Shown: piece by piece, positions 1,945-47,132 of the stretch
Numbering within the stretch: the first letter of the stretch is position 1
How the letters are laid out: every line of letters begins with the position of its first letter
Source: a virus
Virus record (IMG/VR): IMGVR_UViG_3300031595_000166
Location: 93,263 to 157,262 of that record
Length of the DNA: 64,000 bases
Direction: 5' to 3' (one strand)
The notes under the pieces: model-generated
Told to the model about the DNA's origin: nothing
Databases searched by the model: none
The model's input: the letters and a program-made list of their open reading frames with translations, nothing else
Translations under genes and position numbers: made by a program

Positions 1945-2151
1945 TTATAGGAGGAGAAGTAGTTTCTCGATTTTTTCTTCGGTTAATGGAATTAGTTGAT
2001 CATATATTCTTAGTAAGATTTTTGTTATCTCTGGGTTGCAAACGAAGGTTATGTTTTTCAGGAGGTTGTATACAACCATATATTTGCCATGTGTATGATA
2101 GCAACATGCTGAATTTAGTTTTGTTTCGGAATTACAGATAGGGCAATTCAT
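1945..2151 (-). CDS. Family A small Zn-binding protein with C-terminal KLLLL tail
   Basis: MNCPIC..CYH.HGKY..EEKIEKLLLLL; start moved to the ATGA overlap. Confidence 0.8.
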   Translation of the reverse strand: MNCPICNSETKLNSACCYHTHGKYMVVYNLLKNITFVCNPEITKILLRIYDQLIPLTEEKIEKLLLLL

Positions 2152-2423
2152 TTTAGTAATAGTATTGTGTTGATACGATCCTCGGTTAGCCGAAACCATT
2201 TATTACGTAGAGTTATAAGAAGATGAATACTAATTTTGCCATTTGATATAAATGGATCTTTCACAGAATCATCATACACGGATATTCTATTTGAAACAGA
2301 ATCGATTCTTTGATAGACAATATGATATTTTCCTATTCTATGAGAATGCCACCATACTCTTCCTTGTTGGGCAGTTCCAATAATTAATTGATCACATTCA
2401 GGACAGGGGATAGGATTATTCAT
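2148..2423 (-). CDS. Family A small Zn-binding protein
   Basis: CPEC..HSHRIGKY..EDRINTILLLK. Confidence 0.8.
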   Translation of the reverse strand: MNNPIPCPECDQLIIGTAQQGRVWWHSHRIGKYHIVYQRIDSVSNRISVYDDSVKDPFISNGKISIHLLITLRNKWFRLTEDRINTILLLK

Positions 2424-2626
2424 TTTAGCAATAGCATAATTTCAATTCGATCTTCATCAAGAAAAACATGCCCTTTACAATTTAAAATTGATTCACCCCA
2501 TGGATTATTCGTATAAACATAAGTTCCATGTAGGAAAATATTCTCATCGCGATATGAAACCTCATATTTACCAAGTGTATGCCAATGTGAGGCATAAATT
2601 ATTTCATTGCAGATGGGGCAGTTCAT
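2420..2626 (-). CDS. Family A small Zn-binding protein
   Basis: CPIC..HWHTLGKY..LDEDRIEIMLLLK. Confidence 0.8.
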   Translation of the reverse strand: MNCPICNEIIYASHWHTLGKYEVSYRDENIFLHGTYVYTNNPWGESILNCKGHVFLDEDRIEIMLLLK

Positions 2627-2892
2627 TGTAGCAATAACAATTTCTCTATTCGTTCTTCATCTAATACAACAAAACCATTCAATGTCATCTTAGTTTCCCA
2701 ACCATAACTATCATCCTTGCCAGTGTATTTTAATTGTATTAAAGTTTTCATTTGATCACCATTGCGCGAATCGAATGCAATATATGCAATATACACCACT
2801 CGATACTTACCATATCGATGCAACGTATGACCTTGCCAGCCGATATAACTTTTACATATGGGACACAGAGGAATTTCTATTATATTATTCAT
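2623..2892 (-). CDS. Family A small Zn-binding protein
   Basis: CPIC..HTLHRYGKY..LDEERIEKLLLLQ. Confidence 0.8.
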   Translation of the reverse strand: MNNIIEIPLCPICKSYIGWQGHTLHRYGKYRVVYIAYIAFDSRNGDQMKTLIQLKYTGKDDSYGWETKMTLNGFVVLDEERIEKLLLLQ

Positions 2893-3092
2893 TGTAATAA
2901 CAATAGTTTCTCTATTCGTTCCTCATCCAATAATACTAATCTATCAATTCTAAGTATCCTTTTATTGTTAGGGTATTTTCCAGCCCAAACTGTTACAACA
3001 TTATCAGAATAGTAATATACTCTATACTTTCCAATATCATGAGGGCACATATATCCAATTGGATTATTGCAGATTGGACATCTAGCATTCAT
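2889..3092 (-). CDS. Family A small Zn-binding protein
   Basis: CPIC..CPHDIGKY..LDEERIEKLLLLQ. Confidence 0.8.
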   Translation of the reverse strand: MNARCPICNNPIGYMCPHDIGKYRVYYYSDNVVTVWAGKYPNNKRILRIDRLVLLDEERIEKLLLLQ

Positions 3093-3517
3093 TGTAATAA
3101 CAATAATTTCTCTATTCGTTCTTCATCTAACAATACTAATTTATTTAGAGCCAATATTTTATTACGATTTGAATATTCCCCAGTCCAAACAACAGTCTCA
3201 TCATTATAATAATACACACGATATTTTCCCGCATCATGCTTGCAATAAGCATCAATACCTATACCGCATATAGGGCAATCAACATGAATATCATTACAGA
3301 GTATTTCACAATTCATTTTATTCATTGTAATAAACAATAATTTCTCTATTCGTTCTTTATCAAGAAACACAAGCCTATCTTTTATACATAATACATTTAG
3401 TTCATAAGTAGTATCTACACATATTGTTATAGGATCAATAAGATAATATACAGTATATTTTTCATAAATATGAAAACAACAATCATGTATTTCTTCATTA
3501 CAGATAGGACAGTTCAT
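3089..3517 (-). CDS. Family A tandem fusion of two units created by a 1-nt insertion
   Basis: Two CPIC..H..KY units; the internal junction reads RIEKLLFITMNKMNC where neighbours read KLLLLQ*; one extra A near 3333. Confidence 0.75.
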   Translation of the reverse strand: MNCPICNEEIHDCCFHIYEKYTVYYLIDPITICVDTTYELNVLCIKDRLVFLDKERIEKLLFITMNKMNCEILCNDIHVDCPICGIGIDAYCKHDAGKYRVYYYNDETVVWTGEYSNRNKILALNKLVLLDEERIEKLLLLQ

Positions 3518-3765
3518 TTCACGGGTTCGCAATAGCCTCCGTCAGAATACATTTCACAATACAATGTAATTGTTTTTCCATTAACATTTACAATGCAATT
3601 AGTATCTTCCCCCAATTCAACTGGTAATGTATAGCATTGCACACTCGAACTTCCGGTCAATGATGCACTGATATATTGCATTGCATATGGTATTGCCCAA
3701 TCACTTTTACTTGTATTGTTTTCGCAAGGTACAAAAAACATTGACAAAAGATATAATAATATCAT
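3514..3765 (-). CDS. Cys-rich putative secreted protein
   Basis: Hydrophobic N-terminus, several Cys residues, ATGA-coupled to the next gene. Confidence 0.6.
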   Translation of the reverse strand: MILLYLLSMFFVPCENNTSKSDWAIPYAMQYISASLTGSSSVQCYTLPVELGEDTNCIVNVNGKTITLYCEMYSDGGYCEPVK

Positions 3766-3969
3766 GGTTCATCCGAATATAAAATATCTTGATATTGTTC
3801 TTGTTGTATTCGTATATTACTATAATGCATTGCACAAGAAACCAATGCCGGTATAGTAATGAATGCTACTATGATTGTTAGCAACAATGTTATATGACCG
3901 TTTATGTTTTGCCTTTGTGTGTTAGTTCCCATACCTGCTCATATATCAGGCATGTTGTATTAGTGAAAA

Positions 3970-4203
3970 TTATTTTAGGAGCAGGATTGTGTTGATTCGT
4001 TTCTCATCCAATAAGACATGCCTATCAAAATCCAATACTCTACGCCATACCGTATCAGATTTATCATATACTACTGTAATCTTAGATAGATATCTTATGA
4101 CATATATCCCAGAAACCTCATCATGAATAAACTGATGTTCATCCAAGCATATGGGGCAAGTGAATATATACAGGTCAAGTTCATCGCCTTTGCGTTCTAT
4201 CAT
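3970..4203 (-). CDS. Family A small Zn-binding protein
   Basis: CPIC..H..LDEKRINTILLLK. Confidence 0.8.
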   Translation of the reverse strand: MIERKGDELDLYIFTCPICLDEHQFIHDEVSGIYVIRYLSKITVVYDKSDTVWRRVLDFDRHVLLDEKRINTILLLK

Positions 4204-4424
4204 TTCAATACCAATAGTTTCTCAATTCGTTCAATATCAATCCACCCATCAACACTTAGTATCTCTTCGCCAGTATTATGCTTGTCATTAGAAGAATAAA
4301 CTACGGTTCTATTTTCCTGAAAATAATCATAATATACAATATACTTGCCAAAATAATGACAGCAATATGTAGGATCTTTCATCATCTTATTGCATACAGG
4401 GCATCGCAATTCTAATGTTTTCAT
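4200..4424 (-). CDS. Family A small Zn-binding protein
   Basis: CPVC..CCHYFGKY..ERIEKLLVLK. Confidence 0.8.
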   Translation of the reverse strand: MKTLELRCPVCNKMMKDPTYCCHYFGKYIVYYDYFQENRTVVYSSNDKHNTGEEILSVDGWIDIERIEKLLVLK

Positions 4425-4642
4425 TGTAGTAATAGGAGTTTTTCAATACGCTCCTTCGTATCCAGTAAGATTAACTTTTTCAATCGCAAAATTATGATAT
4501 AATCATCAGCATGATCGCGGGCGAAAACGAATGTTTCTACTGGCTCATCGAAGTAGCGAACAAGATATTTATCTACTTTGTGTTGACAACAATCATTCTT
4601 ATCAAGAACCCGAATACGTTCATTGCATTTCGGGCAGTTCAT
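4421..4642 (-). CDS. Family A small Zn-binding protein
   Basis: CPKC..CQHKVDKY..ERIEKLLLLQ. Confidence 0.8.
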   Translation of the reverse strand: MNCPKCNERIRVLDKNDCCQHKVDKYLVRYFDEPVETFVFARDHADDYIIILRLKKLILLDTKERIEKLLLLQ

Positions 4643-4848
4643 TGTAGTAATAGGAGTTTCTCAATACGCTCTTCATCAAGAAAGATTCGTTTTTTAAAAC
4701 GAAGGATATAATCTCCCGATGTACCAACATATACAATTGTTTTGTATGTAGTCAGTTCATAACATACGACTTCGTATTTGCCTGCTGCATGGACATGAAA
4801 AATACGTAAGTTTTTATTGCATACTGGGCAAGTAGAACTGTTGTTCAT
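4639..4848 (-). CDS. Family A small Zn-binding protein
   Basis: CPVC..HVHAAGKY..LDEERIEKLLLLQ. Confidence 0.8.
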   Translation of the reverse strand: MNNSSTCPVCNKNLRIFHVHAAGKYEVVCYELTTYKTIVYVGTSGDYILRFKKRIFLDEERIEKLLLLQ

Positions 4849-5054
4849 TTTAATAAAAATAATTGTTCAATGCGTTCTAATGTCAATGGGATTATATTTT
4901 TTAGTCTCAATAACAACAGATCTCCTTTGCTATGAAAACTAAAAAACCAAACCATAGTGTTATTGCCCGTAGTGTCATACTCAACATCGTATTTATCTAT
5001 TGCATGCCAGTGGTGCTTACTTTCTAAGACATCAGAACAGATAGGGCAGATCAT
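4845..5054 (-). CDS. Family A small Zn-binding protein
   Basis: CPIC..HWHAIDKY..ERIEQLFLLK. Confidence 0.8.
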   Translation of the reverse strand: MICPICSDVLESKHHWHAIDKYDVEYDTTGNNTMVWFFSFHSKGDLLLLRLKNIIPLTLERIEQLFLLK

Positions 5055-5055
5055 T

Positions 5056-5265
5056 TTATTTCAGTAGGAGGAGTTTCTCAATACGTTCTATTGTCAATAC
5101 GGCTAACTGACCAAACAATCGCAACAATAGATTTTGTATATCAAGATCCCAGACATAAGTATTTGTTCTATTATAGTTAATATAGTTAATATAATACTTT
5201 CCGATCCTATGCCAGCACATAGGATTCAACTTTTCGTGGCAGACTGGGCAAGTGTGTTCTAACAT
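5056..5265 (-). CDS. Family A small Zn-binding protein
   Basis: CPVC..CWHRIGKY..ERIEKLLLLK. Confidence 0.8.
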   Translation of the reverse strand: MLEHTCPVCHEKLNPMCWHRIGKYYINYINYNRTNTYVWDLDIQNLLLRLFGQLAVLTIERIEKLLLLK

Positions 5266-5272
5266 TTTCTTT

Positions 5273-5491
5273 TTATTTCAATAATAGTAATTGTTCTATA
5301 CGATCGAATGTTAGATGAACAAGACCGGCAAAACGCAACACATAACTATTACCATCCCATACATTGGTATTATACCGCTCATGCATAACATATTCTACCC
5401 CATACGATTTCACATCATTATTAACGATATGACTGTGTGGATCGTGGTGGAGATTGTTTCCTAGATCATTGGAACAGATTGGGCAGAGCAT
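5273..5491 (-). CDS. Family A small Zn-binding protein
   Basis: CPIC..HSH..DRIEQLLLLK. Confidence 0.8.
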   Translation of the reverse strand: MLCPICSNDLGNNLHHDPHSHIVNNDVKSYGVEYVMHERYNTNVWDGNSYVLRFAGLVHLTFDRIEQLLLLK

Positions 5492-5500
5492 TTTTTGCCT

Positions 5501-5761
5501 TTATTTGAGTAGTGAGAGTTTCTCAATTCGTTCTTCATCTAACACAACGAAGCCATCAAGCCTGAATAATTCTTTCCAATAAGAAGTAGTAGTATATTTG
5601 AGCCCAAGACTCATTCCTTCAATGTATGAAGTATCATCAGAAAGCTTAATGTAAATTAGTGTTTTGCGTTCCTTCGCCACGTAGACGATTTCATATTTTC
5701 CAAGAACATGTTCGTGCGAAAGATCTCCACTAAAATCAACATTACAGATAGGGCAGATCAT
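5501..5761 (-). CDS. Family A small Zn-binding protein
   Basis: CPIC..HEHVLGKY..LDEERIEKLSLLK. Confidence 0.8.
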   Translation of the reverse strand: MICPICNVDFSGDLSHEHVLGKYEIVYVAKERKTLIYIKLSDDTSYIEGMSLGLKYTTTSYWKELFRLDGFVVLDEERIEKLSLLK

Positions 5762-5762
5762 T

Positions 5763-5990
5763 TTATTTCAGTAGTGAGAGTTTCTCAATTCGTTCATCAT
5801 CCAATACAATCAGACCATCCATAACTAATACTAGATTTGTTATAGGTGGTACTATATCTTGTCCGGTAAAAACCACAGTTTTGTCCATTTCATCCTCAAC
5901 AAGATATCTAATCTGATGACGAACGAGAATATGACGATGATATACATGGAATACTATATGACACATTGGGCATTCACGCGTGTTATCCAT
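5763..5990 (-). CDS. Family A small Zn-binding protein
   Basis: CPMC..HRH..LDDERIEKLSLLK. Confidence 0.75.
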   Translation of the reverse strand: MDNTRECPMCHIVFHVYHRHILVRHQIRYLVEDEMDKTVVFTGQDIVPPITNLVLVMDGLIVLDDERIEKLSLLK

Positions 5991-5995
5991 TGTAG

Positions 5996-6232
5996 TTACC
6001 TCAACAATAATAGTTTTTGCCATCGATCATAAACATTCGGTCGTTTGTTTTTTAGATATGATATAAGTGTCCTATCAGATTCAAAAAAATAGTCAAGAAA
6101 CGAATCATGTAATAGGATCTCTATTAGATCTTCGTCTGATCTTAATGCAAACTCTATTCTGAATATTGTGGGCGTCAAGGCTCCCACACCAAGCACAAGC
6201 AAACCAAGGAGGGCGTATCCAATGTTTTTCAT
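5996..6232 (-). CDS. Family C protein (N-terminal TM) with KLLLL tail
   Basis: SDEDLIEILL..YLKNKRPNVYDRWQKLLLLR; paralog of 19980..20153. Confidence 0.7.
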   Translation of the reverse strand: MKNIGYALLGLLVLGVGALTPTIFRIEFALRSDEDLIEILLHDSFLDYFFESDRTLISYLKNKRPNVYDRWQKLLLLR

Positions 6233-6623: not shown

Positions 6624-7103
6624 TTAAATTAGTATAAGCATTTTCCTAATGCGATCCATTGACATCGTAAAATCCATACCAGATAGATCTATTTTAGAAT
6701 GCTTATTGAGAACATTGATTATGTAATCGTTGTAATCACTCATAGCTGTATATCTTGAACCAAGGTATATGTATCCTTGCTCACGATAGAAAAAATCACT
6801 ATCATCGCAGTCATTAGACATCTTCAATTCAGTTTCAGGATCTGCACCATCAATAAAATCAAAAAGAGTGTTGGCTAATGTTTTAAAATACTTTGCGTTG
6901 CTTTCTATATTGTCTGTGCTAAAATGGATGTCGTAAGAATAATAACTATTCACATCCCAAATAAAATGTGAAACGAATGTTTCTCGATATAGAAACTTGG
7001 GACTATCTTCTGGTGATGGAGGAAAAAGATCACGGAATACACCACGACCAAGCTCATACATTGTATGATTGTTCGTATTGACGAGAGTGTATTCGATACC
7101 CAT
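6624..7103 (-). CDS. Hypothetical protein with tail motif
   Basis: 159-aa ORF unrelated to families A and B but ending DRIRKMLILI. Confidence 0.7.
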   Translation of the reverse strand: MGIEYTLVNTNNHTMYELGRGVFRDLFPPSPEDSPKFLYRETFVSHFIWDVNSYYSYDIHFSTDNIESNAKYFKTLANTLFDFIDGADPETELKMSNDCDDSDFFYREQGYIYLGSRYTAMSDYNDYIINVLNKHSKIDLSGMDFTMSMDRIRKMLILI

Positions 7104-7412: not shown

Positions 7413-7676
7413 TTATTGAAGGAGGAGTAGTTTCTCAATTCGTTGTTCATCTAATACTACCCAGTCATTCAAGTCTATGACACGAACATATCGACTGTCA
7501 TGAAATAATGTCTGAAAATCAGGATTATCAATCCATACGCTAATGGCTGATAGACCTTCTACTGTATGATAGACTGCTATATATTTACCGAATTTATGAT
7601 CGTGGCTGGAATAACTATCACGGGATGACAAGAAACACTTATGGCATATGGGGCATTGTTGTTCTGTCATAGACAT
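7413..7676 (-). CDS. Family A small Zn-binding protein
   Basis: CPIC..HDHKFGKY..LDEQRIEKLLLLQ. Confidence 0.8.
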   Translation of the reverse strand: MSMTEQQCPICHKCFLSSRDSYSSHDHKFGKYIAVYHTVEGLSAISVWIDNPDFQTLFHDSRYVRVIDLNDWVVLDEQRIEKLLLLQ

Positions 7677-15854: not shown

Positions 15855-16067
15855 TTACTTCAATAGCATCAACATATCTATATACTCTTCATCCAATCGT
15901 TTTGGACTATTCAATGTAATCCTACTATTCTTATCCGAGTAATTTGCTTGTATATAGATACGAACCTCAGTATCCCAATATACGAACACAAGATACTTAC
16001 CAACAGTATGACTGCATGAAGCATAATCATATAGACAGTAATCACAAACTGGACAAGTATAGCTCAT
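15855..16067 (-). CDS. Family A protein, subfamily with SPKRL.EEYID tail
   Basis: CPVC..CSHTVGKY..LDEEYIDMLMLLK. Confidence 0.8.
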   Translation of the reverse strand: MSYTCPVCDYCLYDYASCSHTVGKYLVFVYWDTEVRIYIQANYSDKNSRITLNSPKRLDEEYIDMLMLLK

Positions 16068-16294
16068 TTCAATAACAATAACCCTTCAATACGCTCCTCA
16101 TTCAGCAACGTTAATTTTTTAATACTCAGTAGTAATGGTGAGAGACGTTCTCTTGGATATATGTCAATCAATTCATTGGGAGAATCTACACCATAATAAC
16201 CCACGCCATAATACACATCGTATTTACCATATCTATGAAAACAACACGATGACGATGACAGATACATATGACAATCTGGGCAAGTATAATTCAT
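16064..16294 (-). CDS. Family A small Zn-binding protein
   Basis: CPDC..CFHRYGKY..EERIEGLLLLK. Confidence 0.8.
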   Translation of the reverse strand: MNYTCPDCHMYLSSSSCCFHRYGKYDVYYGVGYYGVDSPNELIDIYPRERLSPLLLSIKKLTLLNEERIEGLLLLK

Positions 16295-16656
16295 TTCAAT
16301 AACAATACCATATCAATATACTCTTCACTCAATCTCTTTGGAGACTTCAATGTTAGTAAAAAACCATTCGTGTCTCCGGCTTTATTAGCTCTATACACAT
16401 TAACATAACCACCAATAAGAACAAACACAACATACTTATTGAGGGTGTGTCTACATCTAACATTTGTCATATCTCTTGAATCAAAAAACTAACTAATCTT
16501 GAATAGGATCTTGCTCCAATTATTGATATAACATTTGACTGACATATCACTGTATATAAGAACACCATATTTACCTATGCTATGATGACAATATAATACG
16601 CTTGGATCAGTATAAGATTCCTTATACATAATGAGATTACAGTTAGGACATTTCAT
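16291..16656 (-). pseudogene. Two family A fragments joined by a probable deletion (16489..16656 lacks the tail; 16291..16470 lacks CxxC)
   Basis: MKCPNC..CHHSIGKY..LFKIS*, then in the same frame FFDSRDMTNVRCRHTLNKY..SEEYIDMVLLLK*. Confidence 0.65.
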
Positions 16657-16895
16657 TTCAATAACAGCATCATATCAATATACTCTTCATCCAAGCGCTT
16701 TGGAGATTTCAATCTCAAAATACGACTGGACCTTATTGTTATTGGGTATAAATATACTCCAACTGCACCGTCGGAAAATGTTATGATATAGTATTTACCA
16801 ATATCATGTTCACACAGAACATCACACAGAACATCAAACTGGTCTTCATCAAAAAAACTTGTATTCTTATCACAGACCGGACAGGTATAACTCAT
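16653..16895 (-). CDS. Family A small Zn-binding protein
   Basis: CPVC..CEHDIGKY..LDEEYIDMMLLLK. Confidence 0.8.
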   Translation of the reverse strand: MSYTCPVCDKNTSFFDEDQFDVLCDVLCEHDIGKYYIITFSDGAVGVYLYPITIRSSRILRLKSPKRLDEEYIDMMLLLK

Positions 16896-17107
16896 TTTAG
16901 CAACAGCATCTTATCGATATAATCTTCACTCAATGTCTTTGGACTATTGAGTGTTAGTATTCGCATTGGGGATGGATCGGTAGTTTTATTATTCCAAACA
17001 TTCACACTTCCGGTATCATAAATATGGACTGAGTATCTACCAATCAGATGATGATGGTATCTTGGCAAGGGCGAGCTATTATTACAGACGGGGCAGATAT
17101 AACTCAT
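16892..17107 (-). CDS. Family A small Zn-binding protein
   Basis: CPVC..HHHLIGRY..EDYIDKMLLLK. Confidence 0.8.
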   Translation of the reverse strand: MSYICPVCNNSSPLPRYHHHLIGRYSVHIYDTGSVNVWNNKTTDPSPMRILTLNSPKTLSEDYIDKMLLLK

Positions 17108-17298
17108 TTTAGCAACAGCATCATATCAATATACTTTTCACTCAATCTTTTTGGAAAAGACAGGTTCAACAAGCATCTTTCTCCATCGTAGATGTAAGCC
17201 TCGCCATCAAAATGAATATAAGCAGTATATAAACCAACGGTATGTTCATGCAGTAGCATCGTTATAATATAATTACAGACGGGACAAGTATAATTCAT
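17104..17298 (-). CDS. Family A small Zn-binding protein
   Basis: CPVC..HEHTVGLY..EKYIDMMLLLK. Confidence 0.8.
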   Translation of the reverse strand: MNYTCPVCNYIITMLLHEHTVGLYTAYIHFDGEAYIYDGERCLLNLSFPKRLSEKYIDMMLLLK

Positions 17299-17501
17299 TT
17301 TAGTAGCAATATCATATCAATATATGTTTCATCTAAACGTTTTGGACGTTCTAGTCTAACAACAAACTTCCCAGTATACCAGATAGAAATCAGACCGTCG
17401 TTATACACATAAGCAGTATATTTACCCAGCCTATGCGTACATGTCTTTTCAATGTATTTTGATTGAAAATCTTCATTGCAGACGGGACAGATATAATTCA
17501 T
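17295..17501 (-). CDS. Family A small Zn-binding protein
   Basis: CPVC..CTHRLGKY..ETYIDMILLLK. Confidence 0.8.
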   Translation of the reverse strand: MNYICPVCNEDFQSKYIEKTCTHRLGKYTAYVYNDGLISIWYTGKFVVRLERPKRLDETYIDMILLLK

Positions 17502-30521: not shown

Positions 30522-30544
30522 GACGCTACATACCTTTGTTTGTA

Positions 30545-31040: not shown

Positions 31041-31069
31041 AATCTAAGCACGCCAACGCGTCGTGTCAA
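31041..31069 (-). promoter_or_regulatory. Sigma70-type promoter
   Basis: TTGACA-N17-TAGATT. Confidence 0.75.
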
Positions 31070-31081
31070 GTGCCAGGCGGA

Positions 31082-31546: not shown

Positions 31547-31590
31547 ATCTTTCCAGTAAAATACCCAGCTAAGGGCGTGATATTATTATA

Positions 31591-31896
31591 CTAAATTAGG
31601 AGCAATGCTGCTGCGAGTTTATTTTTACCGTAGATATACTTGTTATCTAACTGCTGGATACGATTATCGTTGATCCAGTATTGAGTTTTTATTCCACCAC
31701 CAGCGAACTCAACGGCTGGCCCATCAATTCGATGCCGCCGATTATTGATGAACCATGACTTGAATCCGTAGTTATCAACATATGCTGGAAGAGATAGACC
31801 AGTTTCAGGATCAATTTCATCACGATGGAAGTGTCGATCTCTTCCTTCCAGTTGCCAATATGTTGAAGTTGGAGTGGTTATTTTGATTGATTTCAT
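31591..31896 (-). CDS. Family B HREDGPA-repeat protein (diverged)
   Basis: Ends LAAALLLI. Confidence 0.8.
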   Translation of the reverse strand: MKSIKITTPTSTYWQLEGRDRHFHRDEIDPETGLSLPAYVDNYGFKSWFINNRRHRIDGPAVEFAGGGIKTQYWINDNRIQQLDNKYIYGKNKLAAALLLI

Positions 31897-31927: not shown

Positions 31928-33496
31928 TTAGTTGAGAAAACTATACGCGGAATTAGTAAAAAACTCCTGAAAATTTGGATCCAAAACTGATTTTGTAAAA
32001 AACTCTTTTGCTTCTTGAAACTTACCAGTGTCAAAACGATCACCAACTTCGCTTTGAATGATGAGCATTTCTTCATCAATAGTTTTGAGTAGCAGTTCTT
32101 TCGTCAATACCGTGTCATCAATTATACAGTTATGATATAGCCAACTCCAAGTAAGCCCAAAATTAATCTGATATGTCGCTGCGTCTTCCATCAAGTTATA
32201 AATTGCTACTGCTCCAATACCACGCAACCATGATTCAAGATACTGAATTGCTACACGGATATTACTACGAAGACCGCTCATAGTTATAGCACCACGATGA
32301 GGTTCCAGCAACTCTTCTTCGGTAATTACATAATTACAATACCGGTCCATCTGATTATTTTGTGGCATCAACCAGTCGAATACTTGGCGGACAACATTAA
32401 CTAACCCAGGATGTGCAATCCAGGCTGCTGATGCTCCAAGTCTTATTTCACGCATCTTGTCTAATCTAACTTTTTCCATTGCTTCTTCGTTAGCAAGCTT
32501 ATCTCCCTTGACTGGGATCTGTGCCGCCATTCCACCGATAGCCATAATACCACGTTTATGACAAGTCTGAACAAGCAATTTACAATAAGCATTTAGAAAC
32601 GCTTTGTCCATCGTAATCTGTGATCTGTCTGGCAAAATCATATCAGAACGGTTAGAAAACTTCTTGATGAACGAATATACATAATCATACCGAGCCATAT
32701 TCATACCGACGATATAATCTTTCAATGCCCATACCACTTCGTCCATCTCAAACGCTAATGTAATCGTCTCAACTAAAACGGTAGCCTTGATCGTTCCAGT
32801 CTTCAATTTGAACTTTTCCTCAGCAAACCAAAATATATCAGACCACAAGCGAGCCTCTTCCCAATTCTCCATCTTCGGAAGATAGAAGTATGCACTCGTT
32901 CCATTATCCATCAACTCTTTGATGTTATGGTAAAAATACAATCCAAAATCCATCAATGCAGCAGGAATAGGTTCACCGTCAATCGTGAAGTGTTTCTCAA
33001 TCATATGCCAGCCGCGAGGACGAACCATCAACACGGCAGTCTTGTCATTCAACTTGTATTCCTTGGCATCCGTCTTGAATGTAATTGTCTTTCTAACCGC
33101 ATCCATCAAGTTGATCTGACCCTGAACAATGTTACCCCATGTAGGAGAATTACTGTCTTCAAGATCTGCCATGAATACATTAGCACCAGAGTTCAACGCA
33201 TTGATGATCATCTTCCTATCAGTCGGACCAGTGATCTCTACTCGTCTATCTTTCAAGTCTGCTGGAATAGGCGCTGCAATGTATCTCGAATTACGAACCC
33301 ATTCCGTATCCTTTCGGAAGTGTGGAAGCAATCCGACATCGAAGAGACTTTGTTTCACATGTCGAGCGGTAAGTAGTTCTTTTACTCTTGGAGAGAATTG
33401 CTGAACCAATGATGCAATGAACTCTATTGCACCGTTTGTGAATACTCGATTGTGTTTTTCTAAGTCTTTGATGTCGATTTTCATAATTGCCTTCAT
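31928..33496 (-). CDS. aceB: Malate synthase A
   Basis: DRRVEITGP, NALNSGA, MADLEDS, VRPRGWH, YFYLPKME, TCHKRG, GGMAAQIP, LMEDAAT. Confidence 0.95.
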   Translation of the reverse strand: MKAIMKIDIKDLEKHNRVFTNGAIEFIASLVQQFSPRVKELLTARHVKQSLFDVGLLPHFRKDTEWVRNSRYIAAPIPADLKDRRVEITGPTDRKMIINALNSGANVFMADLEDSNSPTWGNIVQGQINLMDAVRKTITFKTDAKEYKLNDKTAVLMVRPRGWHMIEKHFTIDGEPIPAALMDFGLYFYHNIKELMDNGTSAYFYLPKMENWEEARLWSDIFWFAEEKFKLKTGTIKATVLVETITLAFEMDEVVWALKDYIVGMNMARYDYVYSFIKKFSNRSDMILPDRSQITMDKAFLNAYCKLLVQTCHKRGIMAIGGMAAQIPVKGDKLANEEAMEKVRLDKMREIRLGASAAWIAHPGLVNVVRQVFDWLMPQNNQMDRYCNYVITEEELLEPHRGAITMSGLRSNIRVAIQYLESWLRGIGAVAIYNLMEDAATYQINFGLTWSWLYHNCIIDDTVLTKELLLKTIDEEMLIIQSEVGDRFDTGKFQEAKEFFTKSVLDPNFQEFFTNSAYSFLN

Positions 33497-33789
33497 ATCA
33501 GTAGTAGTAATTTTTGCAGGTTTTCTTTTCCATAGATACGTTTGTTATCAAGTTGTGGAATGTGATTACCATTGATATAGTAGTAAGTTCTACCATCAGC
33601 AAGCTCAACAGCAGGTCCGTCTTCTCGATGACATTTGCCATTGAGACACCATTCTTTGTATCCATTAGCATACTCAATAGCAGGACATGTCAATCCCGTT
33701 TCGGGATTGATGTCTTCTCGATGAAGTTTGCCATTGAGATACCAACATTTGGCTCCATTAGCACTGACTTTATATTCAGGCTTACTCAT
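33493..33789 (-). CDS. Family B HREDGPA-repeat protein
   Basis: INPETGLTC insert; ends QKLLLLI. Confidence 0.85.
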   Translation of the reverse strand: MSKPEYKVSANGAKCWYLNGKLHREDINPETGLTCPAIEYANGYKEWCLNGKCHREDGPAVELADGRTYYYINGNHIPQLDNKRIYGKENLQKLLLLI

Positions 33790-34154
33790 ATTAGTATAAG
33801 ATACTTTTGCAGGTTTTCTTTTCCATAAATTCGTTTGTTATCAAGTTGTGGAATGTGTTTATCATTCATCCAGTAGTAAGTTCTACCATCAGCACACTCA
33901 ACGGCAGGACCATCTTCTCGATGGAGCCTGTCATTGACATACCAATATTTGGTTCCATTAGCATGTTCAATGGCAGGTCCATCTTCTCGATGACGTTTGT
34001 CATTGAGATACCAGCATTTGGTTCCATCAGCATTCTCACCAGCAGGTCCGTCTTCCCGATGAAGTTTGCCATTGAGATACCAATGTAAGCTTACGTTTTT
34101 GTAGCGTTCGTAATATGGCTTACCAAGTAGTTTGTTTAGCCAATTCGTAAGCAT
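33786..34154 (-). CDS. Family B HREDGPA-repeat protein
   Basis: NWLNKLLGKPYY N-cap; ends QKYLILI. Confidence 0.85.
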   Translation of the reverse strand: MLTNWLNKLLGKPYYERYKNVSLHWYLNGKLHREDGPAGENADGTKCWYLNDKRHREDGPAIEHANGTKYWYVNDRLHREDGPAVECADGRTYYWMNDKHIPQLDNKRIYGKENLQKYLILI

Positions 34155-35392
34155 TATGGCTTGGTTGTAATCCCGAGGTCGCGTGCAGCCTTGACTGATA
34201 GCATATCAATCAACCCATTATTGAGACCAGTGGTAGACGAGCCTCCACCCATAACAACATCTGGCGTCTGTCGTTGTGCACCATAAGCTGATGCCCACGC
34301 TTTTTGCGATTCAAGCCAAGCATTCAATCGATCTTGGAAGTTGTTATTAGCACGCAACGCAAGACGTTTAGCATCTGCATCTGCCTTTGCTTCTGCAATC
34401 GTTTGTTGAGCAGCAAGCTTTGCAGTGTCAAGCGACAGTTGTGCAACTTCCTTGTTCTTTTCTGCTTGCGTAACCGCAACTGCTTTCTCTTGTTCTGCTG
34501 CCGTGACTGCCGTTGCTTTCTGAACCTCTTGATCCCACTTCGCTTTTGCAGCGGCAGCCTTACCTTGTTGTTCAACCGTCAATGTATCTTGCTCTGCACG
34601 CTTTGCATTTACAATGCTTTGTTGCACAGCACTGATGGATTCCTGCTGTTGTTTGATTTGTTGTTCAACAACCGGATCATAATCAATTCCGTTGATTGTA
34701 ATGTTGCTCGCGCCCAATGAATACTTCTGAATAGGGCTCTCTTCCTCTCGTTCAACACCATTTGGTGAGCGATCATTAGCCTTTGGCTTGACAATATCAA
34801 CAACCTTCTCTTGACCGGTGATAGGATCAGTAGTTTTGACTTGATCGTGTTCCGTTCGATACACGCCATAGACAATCTGATCCGTAATGTAGTTGATTAG
34901 ATCGGCACGCTTCTCTGCATAACTCTCCCGGGAAGACATAAGTGGACCGGACATATAGACAGACTTGTTTACAACCTGACGAACGAGTTCATGATCGATT
35001 GCTGCCATTGAATGGTAGGTTCGATGAAGTTCAAGCATTTTGTTTGAATCGTTTGGAAGAGAATAACGAAGTGAACCAGAGATGTTTCCATGTCCTCCAT
35101 CATTGAAACGAACTTTGATTGAATCGTCTTCTTCATTGCCCTCGTCTTTCTTTGCGGAGAACCAGAGTTGAGCAGAGCGTTTGTATCGTGTAATGGTTCC
35201 GAAGTTCTGCCAGTGCACGCCCGGAGTATCCCATACATGTAGTTGCCCGCCGATGATGTCTTGCTTGACAACAATCTCATCTGCATTGACAGTCGTCATT
35301 GTATTACCAATGAACAATCCACCAATAACAAGCACGCCAATGCCAAGACCAACTTTGATCCCAAGACCCACGAGATTTGTATCGTTCTTCAT
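34154..35392 (-). CDS. SPFH/Band 7 domain membrane protein
   Basis: N-terminal TM, PGVHW, VRFNDGG, AE-rich coiled coil, PDVVMGG. Confidence 0.8.
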   Translation of the reverse strand: MKNDTNLVGLGIKVGLGIGVLVIGGLFIGNTMTTVNADEIVVKQDIIGGQLHVWDTPGVHWQNFGTITRYKRSAQLWFSAKKDEGNEEDDSIKVRFNDGGHGNISGSLRYSLPNDSNKMLELHRTYHSMAAIDHELVRQVVNKSVYMSGPLMSSRESYAEKRADLINYITDQIVYGVYRTEHDQVKTTDPITGQEKVVDIVKPKANDRSPNGVEREEESPIQKYSLGASNITINGIDYDPVVEQQIKQQQESISAVQQSIVNAKRAEQDTLTVEQQGKAAAAKAKWDQEVQKATAVTAAEQEKAVAVTQAEKNKEVAQLSLDTAKLAAQQTIAEAKADADAKRLALRANNNFQDRLNAWLESQKAWASAYGAQRQTPDVVMGGGSSTTGLNNGLIDMLSVKAARDLGITTKP

Positions 35393-35646
35393 TTGTTTTT
35401 CCCTTTATGTTGTTCGTTTTCATCTTCGAGAGCCTCTTTATAGAGAGTCTCGTATAGTTTTTCTGCTTCTTTTTCAAGTCTTGCTGCTTCTAAATCTGCC
35501 TTTGCAGTTTCAAGACGAATCTTTGCTTCTTCAATCCTACTGCGAGCAGTATGTTTGGAAGACTTAGCGAATCGTAGTATTGTATGACCAACACCAGCGA
35601 TTACTCCAAGCGATACCAATAGGAAAATGACGTCTTCAATTAGCAT
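35389..35646 (-). CDS. Small TM plus coiled-coil protein upstream of the SPFH gene
   Basis: Hydrophobic N-terminus; ATGA-coupled. Confidence 0.6.
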   Translation of the reverse strand: MLIEDVIFLLVSLGVIAGVGHTILRFAKSSKHTARSRIEEAKIRLETAKADLEAARLEKEAEKLYETLYKEALEDENEQHKGKNK

Positions 35647-35666
35647 AGTATTTACCCAATCATTAC

Positions 35667-36143
35667 TTACATCAAGAGTAGAGCAATGGCAAGTTTTTCT
35701 TTTCCATAGATACGTTTGTTATCAAGTTGTGGAATGTAATTGCCATTGATATAGTAGTAAGTTCTACCATCAGCAAACTCAACAGCAGGTCCATCTTTCC
35801 GATGGAGATTGCCATTGAGATACCATTCTTTGGTTCCATTAGTATACTCAACAGCAGGCATCGTCAATCCCGTTTCGGGATTGATGTCTTCCCGATGAAG
35901 TTTGCCATTGAGATACCACCATTTGAATCCATCAGCATACTCAACAGCAGGTCCGTCGTCCCGATGCAGTATATCGTTTTGCCACCATTCTTTATTGCCA
36001 CCGGGATATTCAACCGCATGCAATGTCAGTCCAGTTTCAGGATCAATCTCATCCCTATGAAGACCCCCAAGACCATTATTGAGACGCCAATACTTGGCTC
36101 CAATAAAATGACCAGTAGTTTCAACTATACATGTAGATTGCAT
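35667..36143 (-). CDS. Family B HREDGPA-repeat protein
   Basis: Two PETGLT inserts; ends KLAIALLLM. Confidence 0.85.
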   Translation of the reverse strand: MQSTCIVETTGHFIGAKYWRLNNGLGGLHRDEIDPETGLTLHAVEYPGGNKEWWQNDILHRDDGPAVEYADGFKWWYLNGKLHREDINPETGLTMPAVEYTNGTKEWYLNGNLHRKDGPAVEFADGRTYYYINGNYIPQLDNKRIYGKEKLAIALLLM

Positions 36144-36178
36144 GAACTCTCTTATTGCGAAACGCTGACATCGAAAGT

Positions 36179-36517
36179 CTAATTGATATACCAAGCGTGA
36201 ATAAAATACCCAATAACCAATGCTCCACAGCATGCAATAACTTCACGAAGAAGATTTCTTAGGGTTGATTCAAGGAATGAACTACTACTATCATTACTTC
36301 TTGATGTAAGACCCCATGTGAATAACATGACAAGTAGCATCAGTCCGAATGCTATCGCCAACGGAATACGATTAACATTCGCTGCAACAACAACGAACCA
36401 GTTCCATAACTGCATTACAGCGAATGCTCGTACGAATAACACACCGAAAAACAATGCAAGTCCAATGTTGAACCTGTAAAACTTATCAATAAATGAGCTT
36501 AGTTTACCATATAACAT
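36179..36517 (-). CDS. Membrane protein
   Basis: Three hydrophobic segments; LWNWFV. Confidence 0.6.
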   Translation of the reverse strand: MLYGKLSSFIDKFYRFNIGLALFFGVLFVRAFAVMQLWNWFVVVAANVNRIPLAIAFGLMLLVMLFTWGLTSRSNDSSSSFLESTLRNLLREVIACCGALVIGYFIHAWYIN

Positions 36518-37273: not shown

Positions 37274-37710
37274 GATGTAGGTAGATGTCGCATAATCATC
37301 CACACCACTGGCAACAAGCAGGTGATATGTGAGATCTGATCTATTGCAATCATCAATATCTTGCCAAGAGGAGTAGATACGAATTGAATGAAACCACCAA
37401 CTGGATCCTCATTCATTTCTGGCGGGCGACGAATGTATTTCGCCCATAAAAATACCAAGTGGTATGTATCCAGATAGAAGTGAGAGAAGAATAGGATACT
37501 AATGCTTGCAAGAAACTCGAACGGACTTACTGTAAGAGCCAACAATGGAACGAAACCAAGCGTATAGATTGCACAATGCTTCGCTCTAATAGCACTGTGA
37601 TTGTGTTTAACCATTGCTTCCGCATGAGATTGGAACAACCAATCAGTGAAGAAGTGTATGAAGATTAGGATTGTTAGAATGCCACCGAAGTTTGCGAGAT
37701 ATTGAATCAT
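37270..37710 (-). CDS. DUF3307-like membrane protein
   Basis: HFFTDWLFQ, H..IY, SHFYLD, DQISH. Confidence 0.75.
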   Translation of the reverse strand: MIQYLANFGGILTILIFIHFFTDWLFQSHAEAMVKHNHSAIRAKHCAIYTLGFVPLLALTVSPFEFLASISILFFSHFYLDTYHLVFLWAKYIRRPPEMNEDPVGGFIQFVSTPLGKILMIAIDQISHITCLLPVVWMIMRHLPTS

Positions 37711-38000
37711 AATAACACCAAGAACTTTGCAAGCTTGTCTGCGTTCCAGTTTGATGATAGTGGAAGATTGAATTGACAATGGAGGAGAACTCCTCTTTTG
37801 GTATTGTAGCAGTAGCAGTGAATCGATTTGCGATCTATATTCCATTCAAGTATGTATAATTTATCCTCTATACGAATGGATAGATGCGCGCAATACCATT
37901 CCGGTGATGTAGCAGTATGTTGAAGGTAAAATACTAAACCGCAATCACATATCCTGGTGTCATTATTAGTAATAGTCTTGTTGCAGTTAGGGCAGATCAT
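37707..38000 (-). CDS. Family A variant (CxxC..CxC) with tail
   Basis: CPNC..CDCG..ADKLAKFLVLL. Confidence 0.7.
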   Translation of the reverse strand: MICPNCNKTITNNDTRICDCGLVFYLQHTATSPEWYCAHLSIRIEDKLYILEWNIDRKSIHCYCYNTKRGVLLHCQFNLPLSSNWNADKLAKFLVLL

Positions 38001-38476
38001 TATTTCCACCAATACGGAACCGATCTGTTTTTCCATGTTGCAAGTTTTCTCTTCTCGCCAATGTAGTAATTGCGATACGACTCAACAATATCATCAACCT
38101 TATATTGATCTGGCATACACTTTGGAAAATCCGTTAGTCCAATGTTTCGGATTGATACTCTTCTATTGGAATGCTTTATGTTTTCGATTATTGATTGACA
38201 CTTATGGATTTTGTTATAGCGGTATGTATATTCGGAACATAATGCGAGACCAAGTTCTGTTAGCCAATCAAAATTAGCATATGATTTACCAGCCCATATT
38301 GAACACGGATGATTTTGATGTGATGGCTTATAGACGGGCGTATATGATATATCGTTTGCAATGAGAGCGTTGTTGAGGAGTTGAGTTGTTTCAAGGATCA
38401 TCTTGACACAATGACGATCGTTGTGATACGTGGCACAATGTTGAATGTTGTTAGTATCGAGAACGAAGATATTCAT
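38000..38476 (-). CDS. Pyrimidine-dimer DNA glycosylase/endonuclease V-like family protein
   Basis: MNIFVLD, HCVKMILE..QLL, YKPSHQNHPCSIW, EYTYRY.K.H. Confidence 0.8.
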   Translation of the reverse strand: MNIFVLDTNNIQHCATYHNDRHCVKMILETTQLLNNALIANDISYTPVYKPSHQNHPCSIWAGKSYANFDWLTELGLALCSEYTYRYNKIHKCQSIIENIKHSNRRVSIRNIGLTDFPKCMPDQYKVDDIVESYRNYYIGEKRKLATWKNRSVPYWWK

Positions 38477-43111: not shown

Positions 43112-43456
43112 TCATATTAGCAACAGAACTTTTTGTAGTTTCTCTTTTCCATAAATGCGTTTGTTATCGAGTTGTGGAATATAATTGCCATTGATCCAGT
43201 ATCGAGTTTCTCCATTAGCAAACTCAGTAGCAGGTCCGTCTTCTCGATGAGATTTGTCATTGAGAAACCAATATTTGTCTCCACTAGCACCCTCAATAGC
43301 AGGTCCGTCTTCTCGATGAAGCTTGCCATTGAGATACCAACATTTGTCTCCATTAGCATACTCAACAGCAGGTCCATCTTCCCGATGACGATTGCCATTG
43401 AGATACCAGCGTTTGGTTCCATTAGTATCAATTTTACATTCAGATTTATCGATCAT
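43112..43456 (-). CDS. Family B HREDGPA-repeat protein
   Basis: 3 repeats; ends KLQKVLLLI. Confidence 0.85.
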   Translation of the reverse strand: MIDKSECKIDTNGTKRWYLNGNRHREDGPAVEYANGDKCWYLNGKLHREDGPAIEGASGDKYWFLNDKSHREDGPATEFANGETRYWINGNYIPQLDNKRIYGKEKLQKVLLLI

Positions 43457-43821
43457 CCGATGTTCCTATAATAGCAATGAGCCATCATACTTCCAAGTAG
43501 AAAGAATGCAACCAACCACACTATCCAAACAGGCAGAGACCAACCGCGTGAATCCTGCTTTCTAATTGTTCGTTCGAAGCCAAAAGACTCATCACCAATC
43601 ATCGGATGTAATGAAACCCGTATAGTAGTAGCGAGTAGCAAGAGACAATGAAAGACGACATTAGTGCAGTCTTTGCAATGAACTTACCGTCTGCTGCGGT
43701 TCCAACCTTGAAGCGCATGAAACCATAGAATGCAATGTGCATAGCAACAACCAGACCAATGAGACAACTGATTGTTATAAGAAACATGTGGAGGTTCATT
43801 TGAGTTTTCCTTTGTTTGAGT

Positions 43822-44127
43822 TCATCGTAGTAGCAACAATCTATCAATTTGATCTTCTGTGATTGTGTAGCGAATTGATTTCAATATGACTCTATCTTTC
43901 GACATATTAACGATCGAGAGCCGATTGAAGTATATCTCCGTTGTATTCTTTGACGCATTGAAAATGATAGAGTATTTTCCTAAACGGATGGTATGAGATT
44001 GACTATCACCTGATCTGATGGATGATTTGAGCGATAGTGATAGACCACAAAAACATACAGATCGATGCGATAGGGTACCATCGGTATGGTATGTATCACA
44101 ACGAGGGCAGGTATAAGCATACTTCAT
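43822..44127 (-). CDS. Family A variant with tail
   Basis: CPRC..CFCG..LGKY..TEDQIDRLLLLR. Confidence 0.75.
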   Translation of the reverse strand: MKYAYTCPRCDTYHTDGTLSHRSVCFCGLSLSLKSSIRSGDSQSHTIRLGKYSIIFNASKNTTEIYFNRLSIVNMSKDRVILKSIRYTITEDQIDRLLLLR

Positions 44128-44393
44128 ATTAGTAGCAACAACTTATCTATGCGTTCAGATGTAATATCTAATGGTAATATACTATTCACTTCGGCTATTA
44201 CGATTCCACTATGCGCGCCTATTTTTTTATAAATCCACGATATACTTTTTGCAAGAAAACATTCGATCATGTATCTATCAAGATAGAACACATAGCCTCT
44301 TGTATTGTAGTATAGATCGCAACCATCACAATGATGTTGATTGTATTGATTAGGAATAGGAGCATTGCTTTTCTGACAACGATAGCAGTTCAT
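44124..44393 (-). CDS. Family A variant with tail
   Basis: CYRC..CDGC..TSERIDKLLLLI. Confidence 0.75.
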   Translation of the reverse strand: MNCYRCQKSNAPIPNQYNQHHCDGCDLYYNTRGYVFYLDRYMIECFLAKSISWIYKKIGAHSGIVIAEVNSILPLDITSERIDKLLLLI

Positions 44394-44449
44394 CGAAGCA
44401 ACATCAACTTTTCAATATCGTTCATAACTAATGCTGTGTGGTATGCCAT
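44390..44449 (-). CDS. 19-aa tail-only micro-ORF
   Basis: MAYHTALVMNDIEKLMLLR*; ATGA-coupled to the next gene; in-frame stop three codons upstream of the ATG. Confidence 0.45.
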   Translation of the reverse strand: MAYHTALVMNDIEKLMLLR

Positions 44450-45502: not shown

Positions 45503-45826
45503 ATAGATTGGGCAGATCGGTTCCGTTCTAATTTTAGTTCTGTCTGTTCTTGACTTGCAGAATAATGGTTCTTGCCTGATTGCAAAAATCCATATACTGC
45601 TTCATCATTGCTTTCACCATATCGCCTTGTCTATTATACTCTGCCGTAATGTTCTCAATAAACACATCAAGGATTTTGACCGCCTTGTCTGCTGGGAATA
45701 GTTTGTCTTGCACGACAACAATAAGTTCGCTTATCTTTTCGACCATCATCTTGCCTGATTGTTCGAGACGCTGAAACTCTTGTGTTTGTGATAGTTGTGT
45801 ATCGTTAGACATTTTGATTGTTCCTT

Positions 45827-46036
45827 TTAGGATAGGAGTAGGAGTTTTTCAATTCGTTCCGCTGTAAGAAAGACAAGTCCATCTAAATCCAAAAGAACAG
45901 AGATTGGCGCATATGATGCAACTATTGTGCAACCTTTATCTATATCCACTGAATAGATTACGTGATACTTATGATTAATAGTATGACCACATGCACCGTA
46001 CGAGCGCATAATACCATTACATATTGGGCAATTCAT
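45827..46036 (-). CDS. Family A small Zn-binding protein
   Basis: CPIC..CGHTINHKY..ERIEKLLLLS. Confidence 0.8.
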   Translation of the reverse strand: MNCPICNGIMRSYGACGHTINHKYHVIYSVDIDKGCTIVASYAPISVLLDLDGLVFLTAERIEKLLLLS

Positions 46037-46317
46037 TTGAGTAATAAGAGTTTCTCAACCCTATCCATAGTCATAGGAACGAAGCCATCAAGCGTTAGGA
46101 TTGTTCTAATCTTTGTGCTGAGCATAGCATCACTATTGTATAGTGGTAGACGATCCCAAGTATATGTTATGTGCTTTACTTCCGTCTTACCATTCGCCGT
46201 GTAGCAGACATAGTATTGATCTTTACCTAAAAGATCTGAAAGACGGTGCGGATGGGAATCATACCAAGTATCCTGCTGGATGGAACCATTACATACTGGG
46301 CATTGTAGTGTTTTCAT
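46033..46317 (-). CDS. Family A small Zn-binding protein
   Basis: CPVC..HPH..DRVEKLLLLK. Confidence 0.8.
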   Translation of the reverse strand: MKTLQCPVCNGSIQQDTWYDSHPHRLSDLLGKDQYYVCYTANGKTEVKHITYTWDRLPLYNSDAMLSTKIRTILTLDGFVPMTMDRVEKLLLLK

Positions 46318-46601
46318 TCCATAGAACTTCCGCCAGCAGACTTCCAATCATCAAGACTAACTTTTCTCCAATCAATTTTGTTTCCATAACTGGAATGGAT
46401 ACGATCTTGAAGCCACACATTACCACAATGCTTGCAACGGTAGAGCGTGCCTATTGGCTTATCGAAGAATGGAAACTTACAAGAGTGTAATGATGCCTGA
46501 TGCTTTGGCTTTTGTGGCTTGATGATACCATAGTAGCGTGAACGAGGAAGCGTTATAATAAACCATAGACCGTATAGTATGAGCCCAATAGAGATTAGCA
46601 T
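46314..46601 (-). CDS. TM-anchored Zn-ribbon protein (paralog pair, copy 2)
   Basis: HSCKFPFF.KPIGTLYRCKHC..VSLDDW..AGG. Confidence 0.7.
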   Translation of the reverse strand: MLISIGLILYGLWFIITLPRSRYYGIIKPQKPKHQASLHSCKFPFFDKPIGTLYRCKHCGNVWLQDRIHSSYGNKIDWRKVSLDDWKSAGGSSME

Positions 46602-46605
46602 TTGG

Positions 46606-46908
46606 TTATTCCTTTGTTCCGCCAGCACGGAGCCAGTCATCAAGACTTACTTGATCCCATTCAGTGCAATAGTATTGTGCCTTATAATACAGATACCTTG
46701 AACGATATACTTGATGACAATTATTACAACGGTATAGAGTTCCTGCTGGCTTGGGAAAGAACGGCATCTTGCAGATATGTTGTTTTGGTTGCTTTGACTT
46801 TTGTGGGCGGATGATGCCATAGATGCCATTGTTAGGCTGTCGCATGGAACTAACAAGCCAGATAGCGAATGATGTTAGCAATGCGAAGCATATAATATCG
46901 ATGAACAT
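46606..46908 (-). CDS. TM-anchored Zn-ribbon protein (paralog pair, copy 1)
   Basis: HICKMPFF.KPAGTLYRCNNC..VSLDDW..AGG. Confidence 0.7.
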   Translation of the reverse strand: MFIDIICFALLTSFAIWLVSSMRQPNNGIYGIIRPQKSKQPKQHICKMPFFPKPAGTLYRCNNCHQVYRSRYLYYKAQYYCTEWDQVSLDDWLRAGGTKE

Positions 46909-46925
46909 TTGATTGTGTTCCTTTG

Positions 46926-47132
46926 TTATTTGAGGAGTAGGAGTTTATTGATTCGTTCCACTGTAAGAATGACCAGTCCTTGCACTTCTAATACAATAGA
47001 ATACACTGGCTCGTATGATATGATCATTGTTCTTCCGTTTTTTAGATTATCAACATATGCAACACGCATATTGTGATTCAAACGATGGATGCACGAGCCC
47101 CATATCTTCTCATTACATTGGGGGCAATTCAT
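46926..47132 (-). CDS. Family A small Zn-binding protein
   Basis: CPQC..CIH..ERINKLLLLK. Confidence 0.8.
   Translation of the reverse strand: MNCPQCNEKIWGSCIHRLNHNMRVAYVDNLKNGRTMIISYEPVYSIVLEVQGLVILTVERINKLLLLK

Follow-up and report, generated by a model that had tools for sequence, protein, structure and literature searches.

A shared C-terminal tail on unrelated small proteins of a jumbo phage, with the phage MoxR ATPase as its candidate reader

The window analysed here is a stretch of 64,000 nucleotides (positions 93,263 to 157,262 of the IMG/VR virus record IMGVR_UViG_3300031595_000166) that forms the right end of a 157,262-nt viral contig (38% guanine plus cytosine, nearly all genes on the minus strand). 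We found that 51 of its open reading frames (ORFs), whose bodies belong to unrelated families, end in the same short peptide, hereafter named the tail. We see about an even chance that this tail serves as a docking tag at the C-terminus and that the MoxR-type AAA+ ATPase of the phage itself, working with the adjacent DUF2201 protein (a zincin peptidase fused to a vWA domain), reads it.

The tail and the proteins that carry it

The tail was scored with a profile of the last ten residues (10 positions), using a cut-off of 8 bits. Its consensus is E-[RNE]-[IL]-[EQD]-K-[LY]-L-L-L-x-COOH. In the window, 50 ORFs reached at least 8 bits, 51 with ORF 31591 (5.3 bits), to which a micro-ORF at 44390 is added; all tailed ORFs are on the minus strand. 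An earlier reading of the window by a model, hereafter the original prediction, had claimed such a tag on about 50 proteins from unrelated families, and this was borne out. It had counted about 35 members of family A, 12 of family B and 2 of family C; we find 34 (slightly fewer), 12 and 2 (5996 and 19980), together with three singletons (6624, 18926 and 37707). It had named the first two of these singletons correctly and had missed 37707 (13.8 bits), and its weak case, 41636, does not hold (-3.8 bits). The tail-only micro-ORF that it described scores 18.0 bits, and three type 2 family B proteins lack the tail, as it had stated.

On the whole contig, 88 ORF ends carry the tail, and the tailed genes outside the window include family D (13 members), family E and further singletons. 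A scan of the genome and its relatives for C-terminal enrichment had been proposed as a check; 73 of the 326 called genes of the contig score, against 0.03 (at most 1) in 500 shuffles, and internal matches amounted to 5 in 41,753 sequence windows. Counting back from the C-terminus, all scored tails have Leu at -2, residues -5 to -2 are nonpolar, and position -1 is Lys, Gln or Arg in about 40% of cases. The stop codon overlaps an ATG (ATGA stop-start) in 47 of the 88 tailed genes, and these overlaps may in part account for the preference for Lys, Gln or Ile at -1. The original prediction saw the tag flush with the stop codon, and it is flush with the C-terminus in 152 of the 154 database homologues of family A. 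The two-unit fusion 3089 has an identical length of 142 residues in further contigs from this population, which makes an assembly error unlikely. The tail thus has what is expected of a docking motif of the NorD or Rubisco type: a fixed distance from a free C-terminus, an invariant penultimate residue and a variable last one.

Outside the tail, the proteins have nothing recognizable in common. Once the last 14 residues were removed, the bodies of families A, B, D and E gave profile-profile probabilities below 1%, and a Pfam search with representatives of families A, B, C, D and E and two singletons gave no significant match. Within family A, bodies are 27% identical and tails 68% identical, tails of different clusters being 45% identical. 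The predicted structure of family A (predicted local distance difference test, pLDDT, 94) has a CxxC/His site, which suggests zinc binding, four strands, and a final helix at residues 57-66. There the tail is modelled as a well-predicted helix directly after the beta-sheet, and it may have a partly structural role. A fold search with family A returned no solved structure at Z 5 or more, and an Atlas search returned only unnamed clusters, with matches below 0.9. Long matches of P0015 and P0016 to the family A profile were discarded as immunoglobulin-repeat artefacts. Family B is a short-repeat protein that is also found untailed, both in the window and in the related genome G005.

It had been proposed that the peptide rather than the DNA is under selection, and the codons agree: all six Leu codons are used at -2 among the 88 tails of the contig, and the 88 tailed genes spell their last six codons in 80 different ways at the DNA level. 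The comparison of substitution rates that had been suggested points the same way, the ratio of nonsynonymous to synonymous substitutions (dN/dS) being 0.086 in the tail versus 0.337 in the body (33 reciprocal pairs; tail dS 0.94, dN 0.08). These comparisons indicate selection on the tail at the protein level. Tails over-use Leu codons with A or G as the last base, and their Leu codon use differs from that of the genome; this bias plausibly comes from overlap with the start region of the next gene.

Tail versions in related phages

The phage is a member of a myovirus jumbo-phage family with genomes of 360-480 kb. The DNA pattern of the tail led us to a relative, G001 (406 kb, 95% complete), and the left 80 kb of the window's contig runs colinear with it at 64-95% identity. 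The gene content of G001 suggests to us a myovirus jumbo phage whose structural module lies at about 110-220 kb. For its putative capsid gene, IMG/VR has 316 relatives, the best 80 of them at least 76% identical. In G001 the tail is found on 0 of 91 structural-module genes versus 58 of 470 genes elsewhere, and heavily tailed genomes carry it on 12-25% of their genes.

Different relatives carry different versions of the tail. The Leu tail is common to G001, G002 and the phage of the window. A sister tail with Phe at -2 (e.g. K-L-K-T-Y-L-L-F-S) is found in G004, G007, G010 and most of about 50 further loci. In G006, a third version, L-T-x-D-E-L-M-I-K-D-I-I-E, ends 108 of 680 genes (L228-L247, L270-L271), with Glu as the last residue in 85 of the 108 and Asp at -4. 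G005, a complete genome, has no tails. Loose DNA patterns, whether for Phe tails or for the tails of G034-G037, gave too much noise to be used.

Three unrelated families allow the same body to be followed from one version to another. In family D, searched by its body alone, position -2 is Leu across the window's lineage but Phe for G004, G007 and G010. Bodies of family B carry Phe tails in L369, L327, L337 and L347, and are untagged in G005. A zinc family of 200 residues exhibits the same Leu/Phe switch by lineage, G018 having the one exception (Leu). The switch tracks the phage phylogeny. Because three unrelated families switch together with the lineage, we infer one common reader: on these alignments, the concerted change at -2 is best explained by one reader differing between lineages. 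The exclusive choice of Leu, Phe or Ile in each genome suggests a shaped pocket. The switch is compatible with a viral or a cellular reader alike.

Candidate readers of the tail

G001 encodes a MoxR-type AAA+ ATPase and a DUF2201 peptidase-vWA protein. This pair belongs to the phage of the window as well, because L379 overlaps the start of the window's contig at 100% identity over 6,639 nt and L377 overlaps at 100% over 11,618 nt. It lies about 11 kb past the end of the contig (the MoxR gene at L377:10001-11128), where five tailed genes stand upstream of it and eight downstream, among accessory genes and apart from the structural module. All tailed genomes checked that span the locus have the pair. 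G006 has a divergent MoxR and DUF2201 among its own tailed genes (417-422 kb), and tailed genes lie between MoxR and DUF2201 in both G004 and G006. The first gene upstream of MoxR is tailed in 12 of 49 loci, versus 1-4 at other upstream ranks, this gene being largely one inherited family.

Walker A, Walker B, sensor 1 and the arginine finger are invariant in 53 MoxR sequences. The best solved sequence matches are midasin, which relates the protein to the MoxR/midasin clade; CbbQ2 gave the best target-normalised template-modelling score (0.60) among the best 50 structures listed, and the Pfam AAA match is marginal. An extra C-terminal helical domain follows the lid (residues about 247-375). By analogy with the MoxR/vWA class, the phage MoxR would be a hexameric ATPase, binding its vWA partner and remodelling a client. 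In the DUF2201 protein, the HExxH motif and the DxSxS motif of the MIDAS (metal ion-dependent adhesion site) are invariant in 47 sequences, and Pfam PF13203 and PF09967 on the G001 orthologue identify a zincin peptidase (DUF2201_N) fused to a vWA domain (DUF2201). The peptidase of the window's lineage (L377:11666-13759) has a 47-residue insertion that is absent in Phe-tail phages. No large third gene is conserved beside MoxR/vWA in the loci read, and no VMAP was seen there, although no VMAP-C profile search was made.

Complex prediction with an AAA+ partner, which had been suggested as a check, gave a weakly positive result. A complex of MoxR, both halves of DUF2201 (peptidase and vWA) and window ORF 2889 scored 0.59 (0.56, 0.60, 0.59), versus 0.00 for two unrelated partners and 0.00 for ORF 2889 when MoxR was replaced; contact agreement among runs was at least 96% and partner pLDDT at least 81. 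The mark used for this score was reached by 58 of 80 solved complexes and by 2 of 110 mismatches; at 0.60 or under, it was passed by 7 solved complexes and both mismatches. The model is thus a weak pointer to MoxR as the contact of ORF 2889. The AAA+ unfoldase that the original prediction had listed among possible partners now has a specific candidate, the phage MoxR with its peptidase-vWA protein, on structural grounds that are weak and genomic grounds that are moderate.

Should MoxR read the tail, the tail helix would present its -9, -6/-5 and invariant -2 residues to a site on MoxR, possibly the extra C-terminal helical domain. In a weaker step of the scheme, docking during infection would deliver the small proteins, or the host targets that their variable bodies hold, to an ATP-driven machine for remodelling or cleavage. 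The tailed proteins may act as adaptors, their variable bodies fetching host targets for the machine to unfold or cleave, or they may be clients that the MoxR machine activates or removes. The adaptor view fits, since bodies are hypervariable yet constrained and expansions are lineage-specific. Unrelated bodies, selection on the peptide, a free C-terminus and a single reader, all parts of the adaptor library originally proposed, are supported; the role of the bodies as target-binding adaptors, rather than clients, is a conjecture.

Several observations weigh against MoxR as the reader. G005 has an intact MoxR but no tails; a frameshift divides its DUF2201 gene, and this may reflect decay, a naturally two-part gene or faulty assembly. 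Sampling is good for a single Leu/Phe switch only and 24 MoxR columns separate the two lineages equally, so covariation is unable to single out MoxR, and a host change would likewise switch a whole lineage at once. As for the predicted complex, 0.59 falls in a range in which a wrong pass is commoner than a right one, the job (four chains, a monomeric MoxR) differed from those used in calibration, and it gave no interface, the tail not being identified as a contact. Position 327 of MoxR is no more than a lead on sequence comparison: it is Gly beside 77 Phe tails and 6 others, and Ala in the window's lineage and in L358, L370 and L418 (one to three Leu/Met-type ends), with L363 (Ala with one Phe tail) as a counter-example. 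Changes at W117 and in the postS1 loop are confounded, since they track both tail type and ClpP loss: the MoxRs of G001, G002 and G005 are sisters (in a tree made by a quick method only), changed at both places, and these genomes are without ClpP. No relative of the G006 MoxR was found in the viral collection.

Nonpolar C-termini are known degrons, and the last four residues of the tail are mostly aliphatic. This, together with the lack of any tagged structural-module gene (0/91 in G001), would fit a tail that makes early proteins short-lived via host Tsp, FtsH, Lon or Clp. But a helix of 10-13 residues with fixed spacing is conserved, beyond mere hydrophobicity, the one exclusive residue per genome suggests a shaped pocket, and the last residue is often Lys or Gln, or in G006 Glu with Asp at -4, acidic C-terminal ends generally stabilising against these proteases. 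We therefore hold a degron to be quite unlikely. Known packaging signals of the T4 capsid targeting kind are N-terminal and cleaved, and no tailed gene lies in the structural module, which makes a head-packaging signal for injected proteins most improbable, even though small, variable proteins are typical cargo and the MoxR-vWA pair has been proposed for virion assembly (PMC7824862). Both alternatives had been raised by the original prediction, and both fit less well than docking. The tail could also be just a structural helix, or a DNA cassette that recombination has spread, without any shared partner. This would agree with the confidently modelled helix that follows the sheet in family A (residues 57-66), with the tandem arrays of tailed genes and with a Leu codon use unlike that of the genome. 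As a sole explanation it is largely refuted, and we consider it very unlikely: bodies share nothing, family B folds exist untailed, tail dS is high where dN is low, with 80 spellings among 88 genes, and a structural role leaves the concerted Leu/Phe switching unexplained.

The remaining alternatives keep a docking tag and change its reader. The tail might dock on a host protein (a Clp/Hsp100 N-domain, a chaperone, RNA polymerase or similar), lineages differing with their hosts. Host readers of phage adaptors exist, as with SPO1 Gp53 on ClpC (PMC6873191), the switch tracks phage phylogeny as host range might, and G005 has a MoxR and no tails. However, tailed genes cluster around MoxR/vWA, and tails range from Leu-rich to I-K-D-I-I-E, probably more than a conserved host surface usually allows; we judge a host reader unlikely. 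Another phage protein could read the tail instead, be it DUF2201 itself, a small unannotated protein, the phage ClpP or a trigger factor, to which we give the same small chance as to a degron. DUF2201 has intact HExxH and MIDAS motifs and travels with MoxR, it carries the insertion in the window's lineage, and it is split in the tail-less G005; yet the predicted score fell to 0.00 once MoxR was replaced, with both DUF2201 halves still present. ClpP, usually as a tandem pair, was noted in G004, G006, G007, G010, G012, G018-G024 and G026 and is encoded in 10/12 near-complete relatives, but it was rejected as a reader because it is absent from G001, despite 66 tails, and from G002, also tailed. 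A standalone vWA protein (contig 7443-8465), at first absent only from the tail-less G005, was ruled out in turn: it is missing in G018 (97% complete) and G023 (92%), whose MoxR loci have several tails.

Other MoxR and protein quality-control genes were seen in the family. A second MoxR paralogue without a vWA neighbour lies beside IscA-like and thioredoxin-like genes (G010:142830, G004:193092, G007:129416), and in G010 it directly follows a tailed gene of 309 residues. The quality-control kit of G001 is rich for a phage, with DnaJ-like, trigger factor, lone M41-like peptidase, Hsp20 and DUF444 genes (222927-238348, 286733, 311937).

Window features, known systems and implications

Tailed and related ORFs of the window (positions within the window)
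Feature	Position	Strand	Remark
15 family A ORFs (CPxC zinc site, beta-meander, tail helix)	1945..6023	-	
Two-unit family A fusion, internal degenerate tail	3089-3517	-	within the 1945..6023 cluster
Family C ORF with tail	5996..6232	-	
159-residue singleton with tail	6624..7103	-	
Family A ORF with tail	7413..7676	-	
Seven family A ORFs, most with the Y-I-D-M tail variant	15855..17501	-	
Family A ORF 18705 and 90-residue singleton 18926, both with tail	18705..19198	-	
Family C ORF 19980 and two family A ORFs, with tail	19980..20605	-	
Three family A ORFs with tail	21595..22252	-	
Two family B (H-R-E-D-G-P-A repeat) ORFs with tail	24795..25489	-	
Six family B ORFs with tail, three of them degenerate	29019..31896	-	
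Three family B ORFs (33493, 33786, 35667) with tail, among untagged genes	33493..36233	-	
109-residue CxxC singleton with tail	37707..38036	-	13.8 bits
Family B ORF 43112 and divergent family A ORFs 43822 and 44124, with tail	43112..44393	-	
Putative 19-codon ORF, scarcely more than a tail	44390..44449	-	18.0 bits
Three family A ORFs (45827, 46033, 46926) with tail	45827..47132	-	
Three type 2 family B ORFs, same repeat body, without tail (internal control)	59321..62484	-	

The window also encodes malate synthase and isocitrate lyase (31928-33496 and 38920-40182), that is, the whole glyoxylate shunt on a phage. The closest homologues of these genes are apparently on other phage-like contigs, and the next ones in Polyangiaceae. 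For malate synthase, the best named cellular matches are Polyangiaceae and Labilithrix (55-56%), a hint in the sequence towards a myxobacterial host. L418, a 383-kb contig of the same phage family, lies within a Chitinophagales metagenome bin, where it is probably mis-binned or infecting. Elsewhere in the window are four co-oriented genes (9851-14734), one coding for a GH16 hydrolase and the other three without Pfam match, genes for tRNA-Asn, tRNA-Cys and tRNA-Lys (15393-15552 and 56996-57070), and a ResIII-type helicase with a 543-residue DNA methyltransferase-like gene (47306-53341). At contig positions 17747-24249 (L001:17747 to L002:5249) are four tandem paralogues of 510-560 residues with a conserved central domain and no Pfam match, of which G001 has five.

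Several known systems resemble parts of this picture. In NorQ-NorD, the MoxR protein NorQ binds the last two residues of NorD through its postS1 loop, and removal of these residues abolishes the complex (PMC13036017). There too a MoxR ring grips a hydrophobic extreme C-terminus, but the tail is on the single vWA partner, whereas here it is on about 90 small non-vWA proteins and the vWA partner is untailed; the phage MoxR has, in addition, its extra C-terminal helical domain. CbbQO needs the penultimate residue of Rubisco at a fixed distance from the end, the last residue being free (PMC4660213). This is again a MoxR/vWA pair requiring a client C-terminal motif in which the penultimate residue and the distance are critical, but with one client, a three-residue motif, no peptidase and no library of variable proteins. 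Jumbo phages of group 2.2 have a MoxR and metallopeptidase-vWA pair (PMC7824862) with the same two-gene architecture, AAA+ plus DUF2201_N/DUF2201; no tagged proteins are described there, and here the pair lies among accessory genes. The vWA-MoxR-VMAP ternary conflict systems bear FxSxx-COOH-type peptides on small proteins (PMC7159879), and like the phage they combine MoxR and vWA with a zincin peptidase and with small proteins that diverge fast but conserve a C-terminal peptide. They differ in being bacterial, with one small protein per locus and VMAP present, whereas here the system is viral and comprises dozens of folded proteins genome-wide. SPO1 Gp53, an adaptor-like protein for host ClpC (PMC6873191), likewise redirects an AAA+ machine via an adaptor, but it is a single protein on a host ATPase. 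F-box and SOCS-box adaptors, in which a constant docking part is joined to a variable binding part, are an analogy only, and no homology is claimed.

The MoxR/peptidase-vWA pair in jumbo phages and the C-terminal peptides in bacterial vWA-MoxR systems were thus already on record. A literature search, outside which most subscription journals lay, turned up no paper describing a C-terminal tag that is genome-wide and lineage-specific in phages. New here are the three-family Leu/Phe switch, a complete relative that has no tails, the elimination of two proteins as readers, and a prediction, controlled though weak, that points to MoxR.

In jumbo phages, small orphans make up most of the genes, and one short tag gathers many of them into one functional class with a testable partner. 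The MoxR/peptidase-vWA pair, so far guessed to serve virion assembly, would gain a set of clients or adaptors, and the natural Leu, Phe and Ile versions of the tail are ready-made specificity swaps. It is conceivable, if rather doubtful, that jumbo phages run a modular targeting system, in which a MoxR ring with its vWA-zincin peptidase would be served by 25 to more than 100 fast-evolving adaptors sharing the tail, each capturing a different host target (e.g. a defence protein) for unfolding or cleavage. Such a system, if true, would be a ubiquitin-free counterpart of F-box adaptor libraries, and the adaptor reading would then provide programmable, phage-encoded protein targeting together with a catalogue of candidate anti-defence binders.

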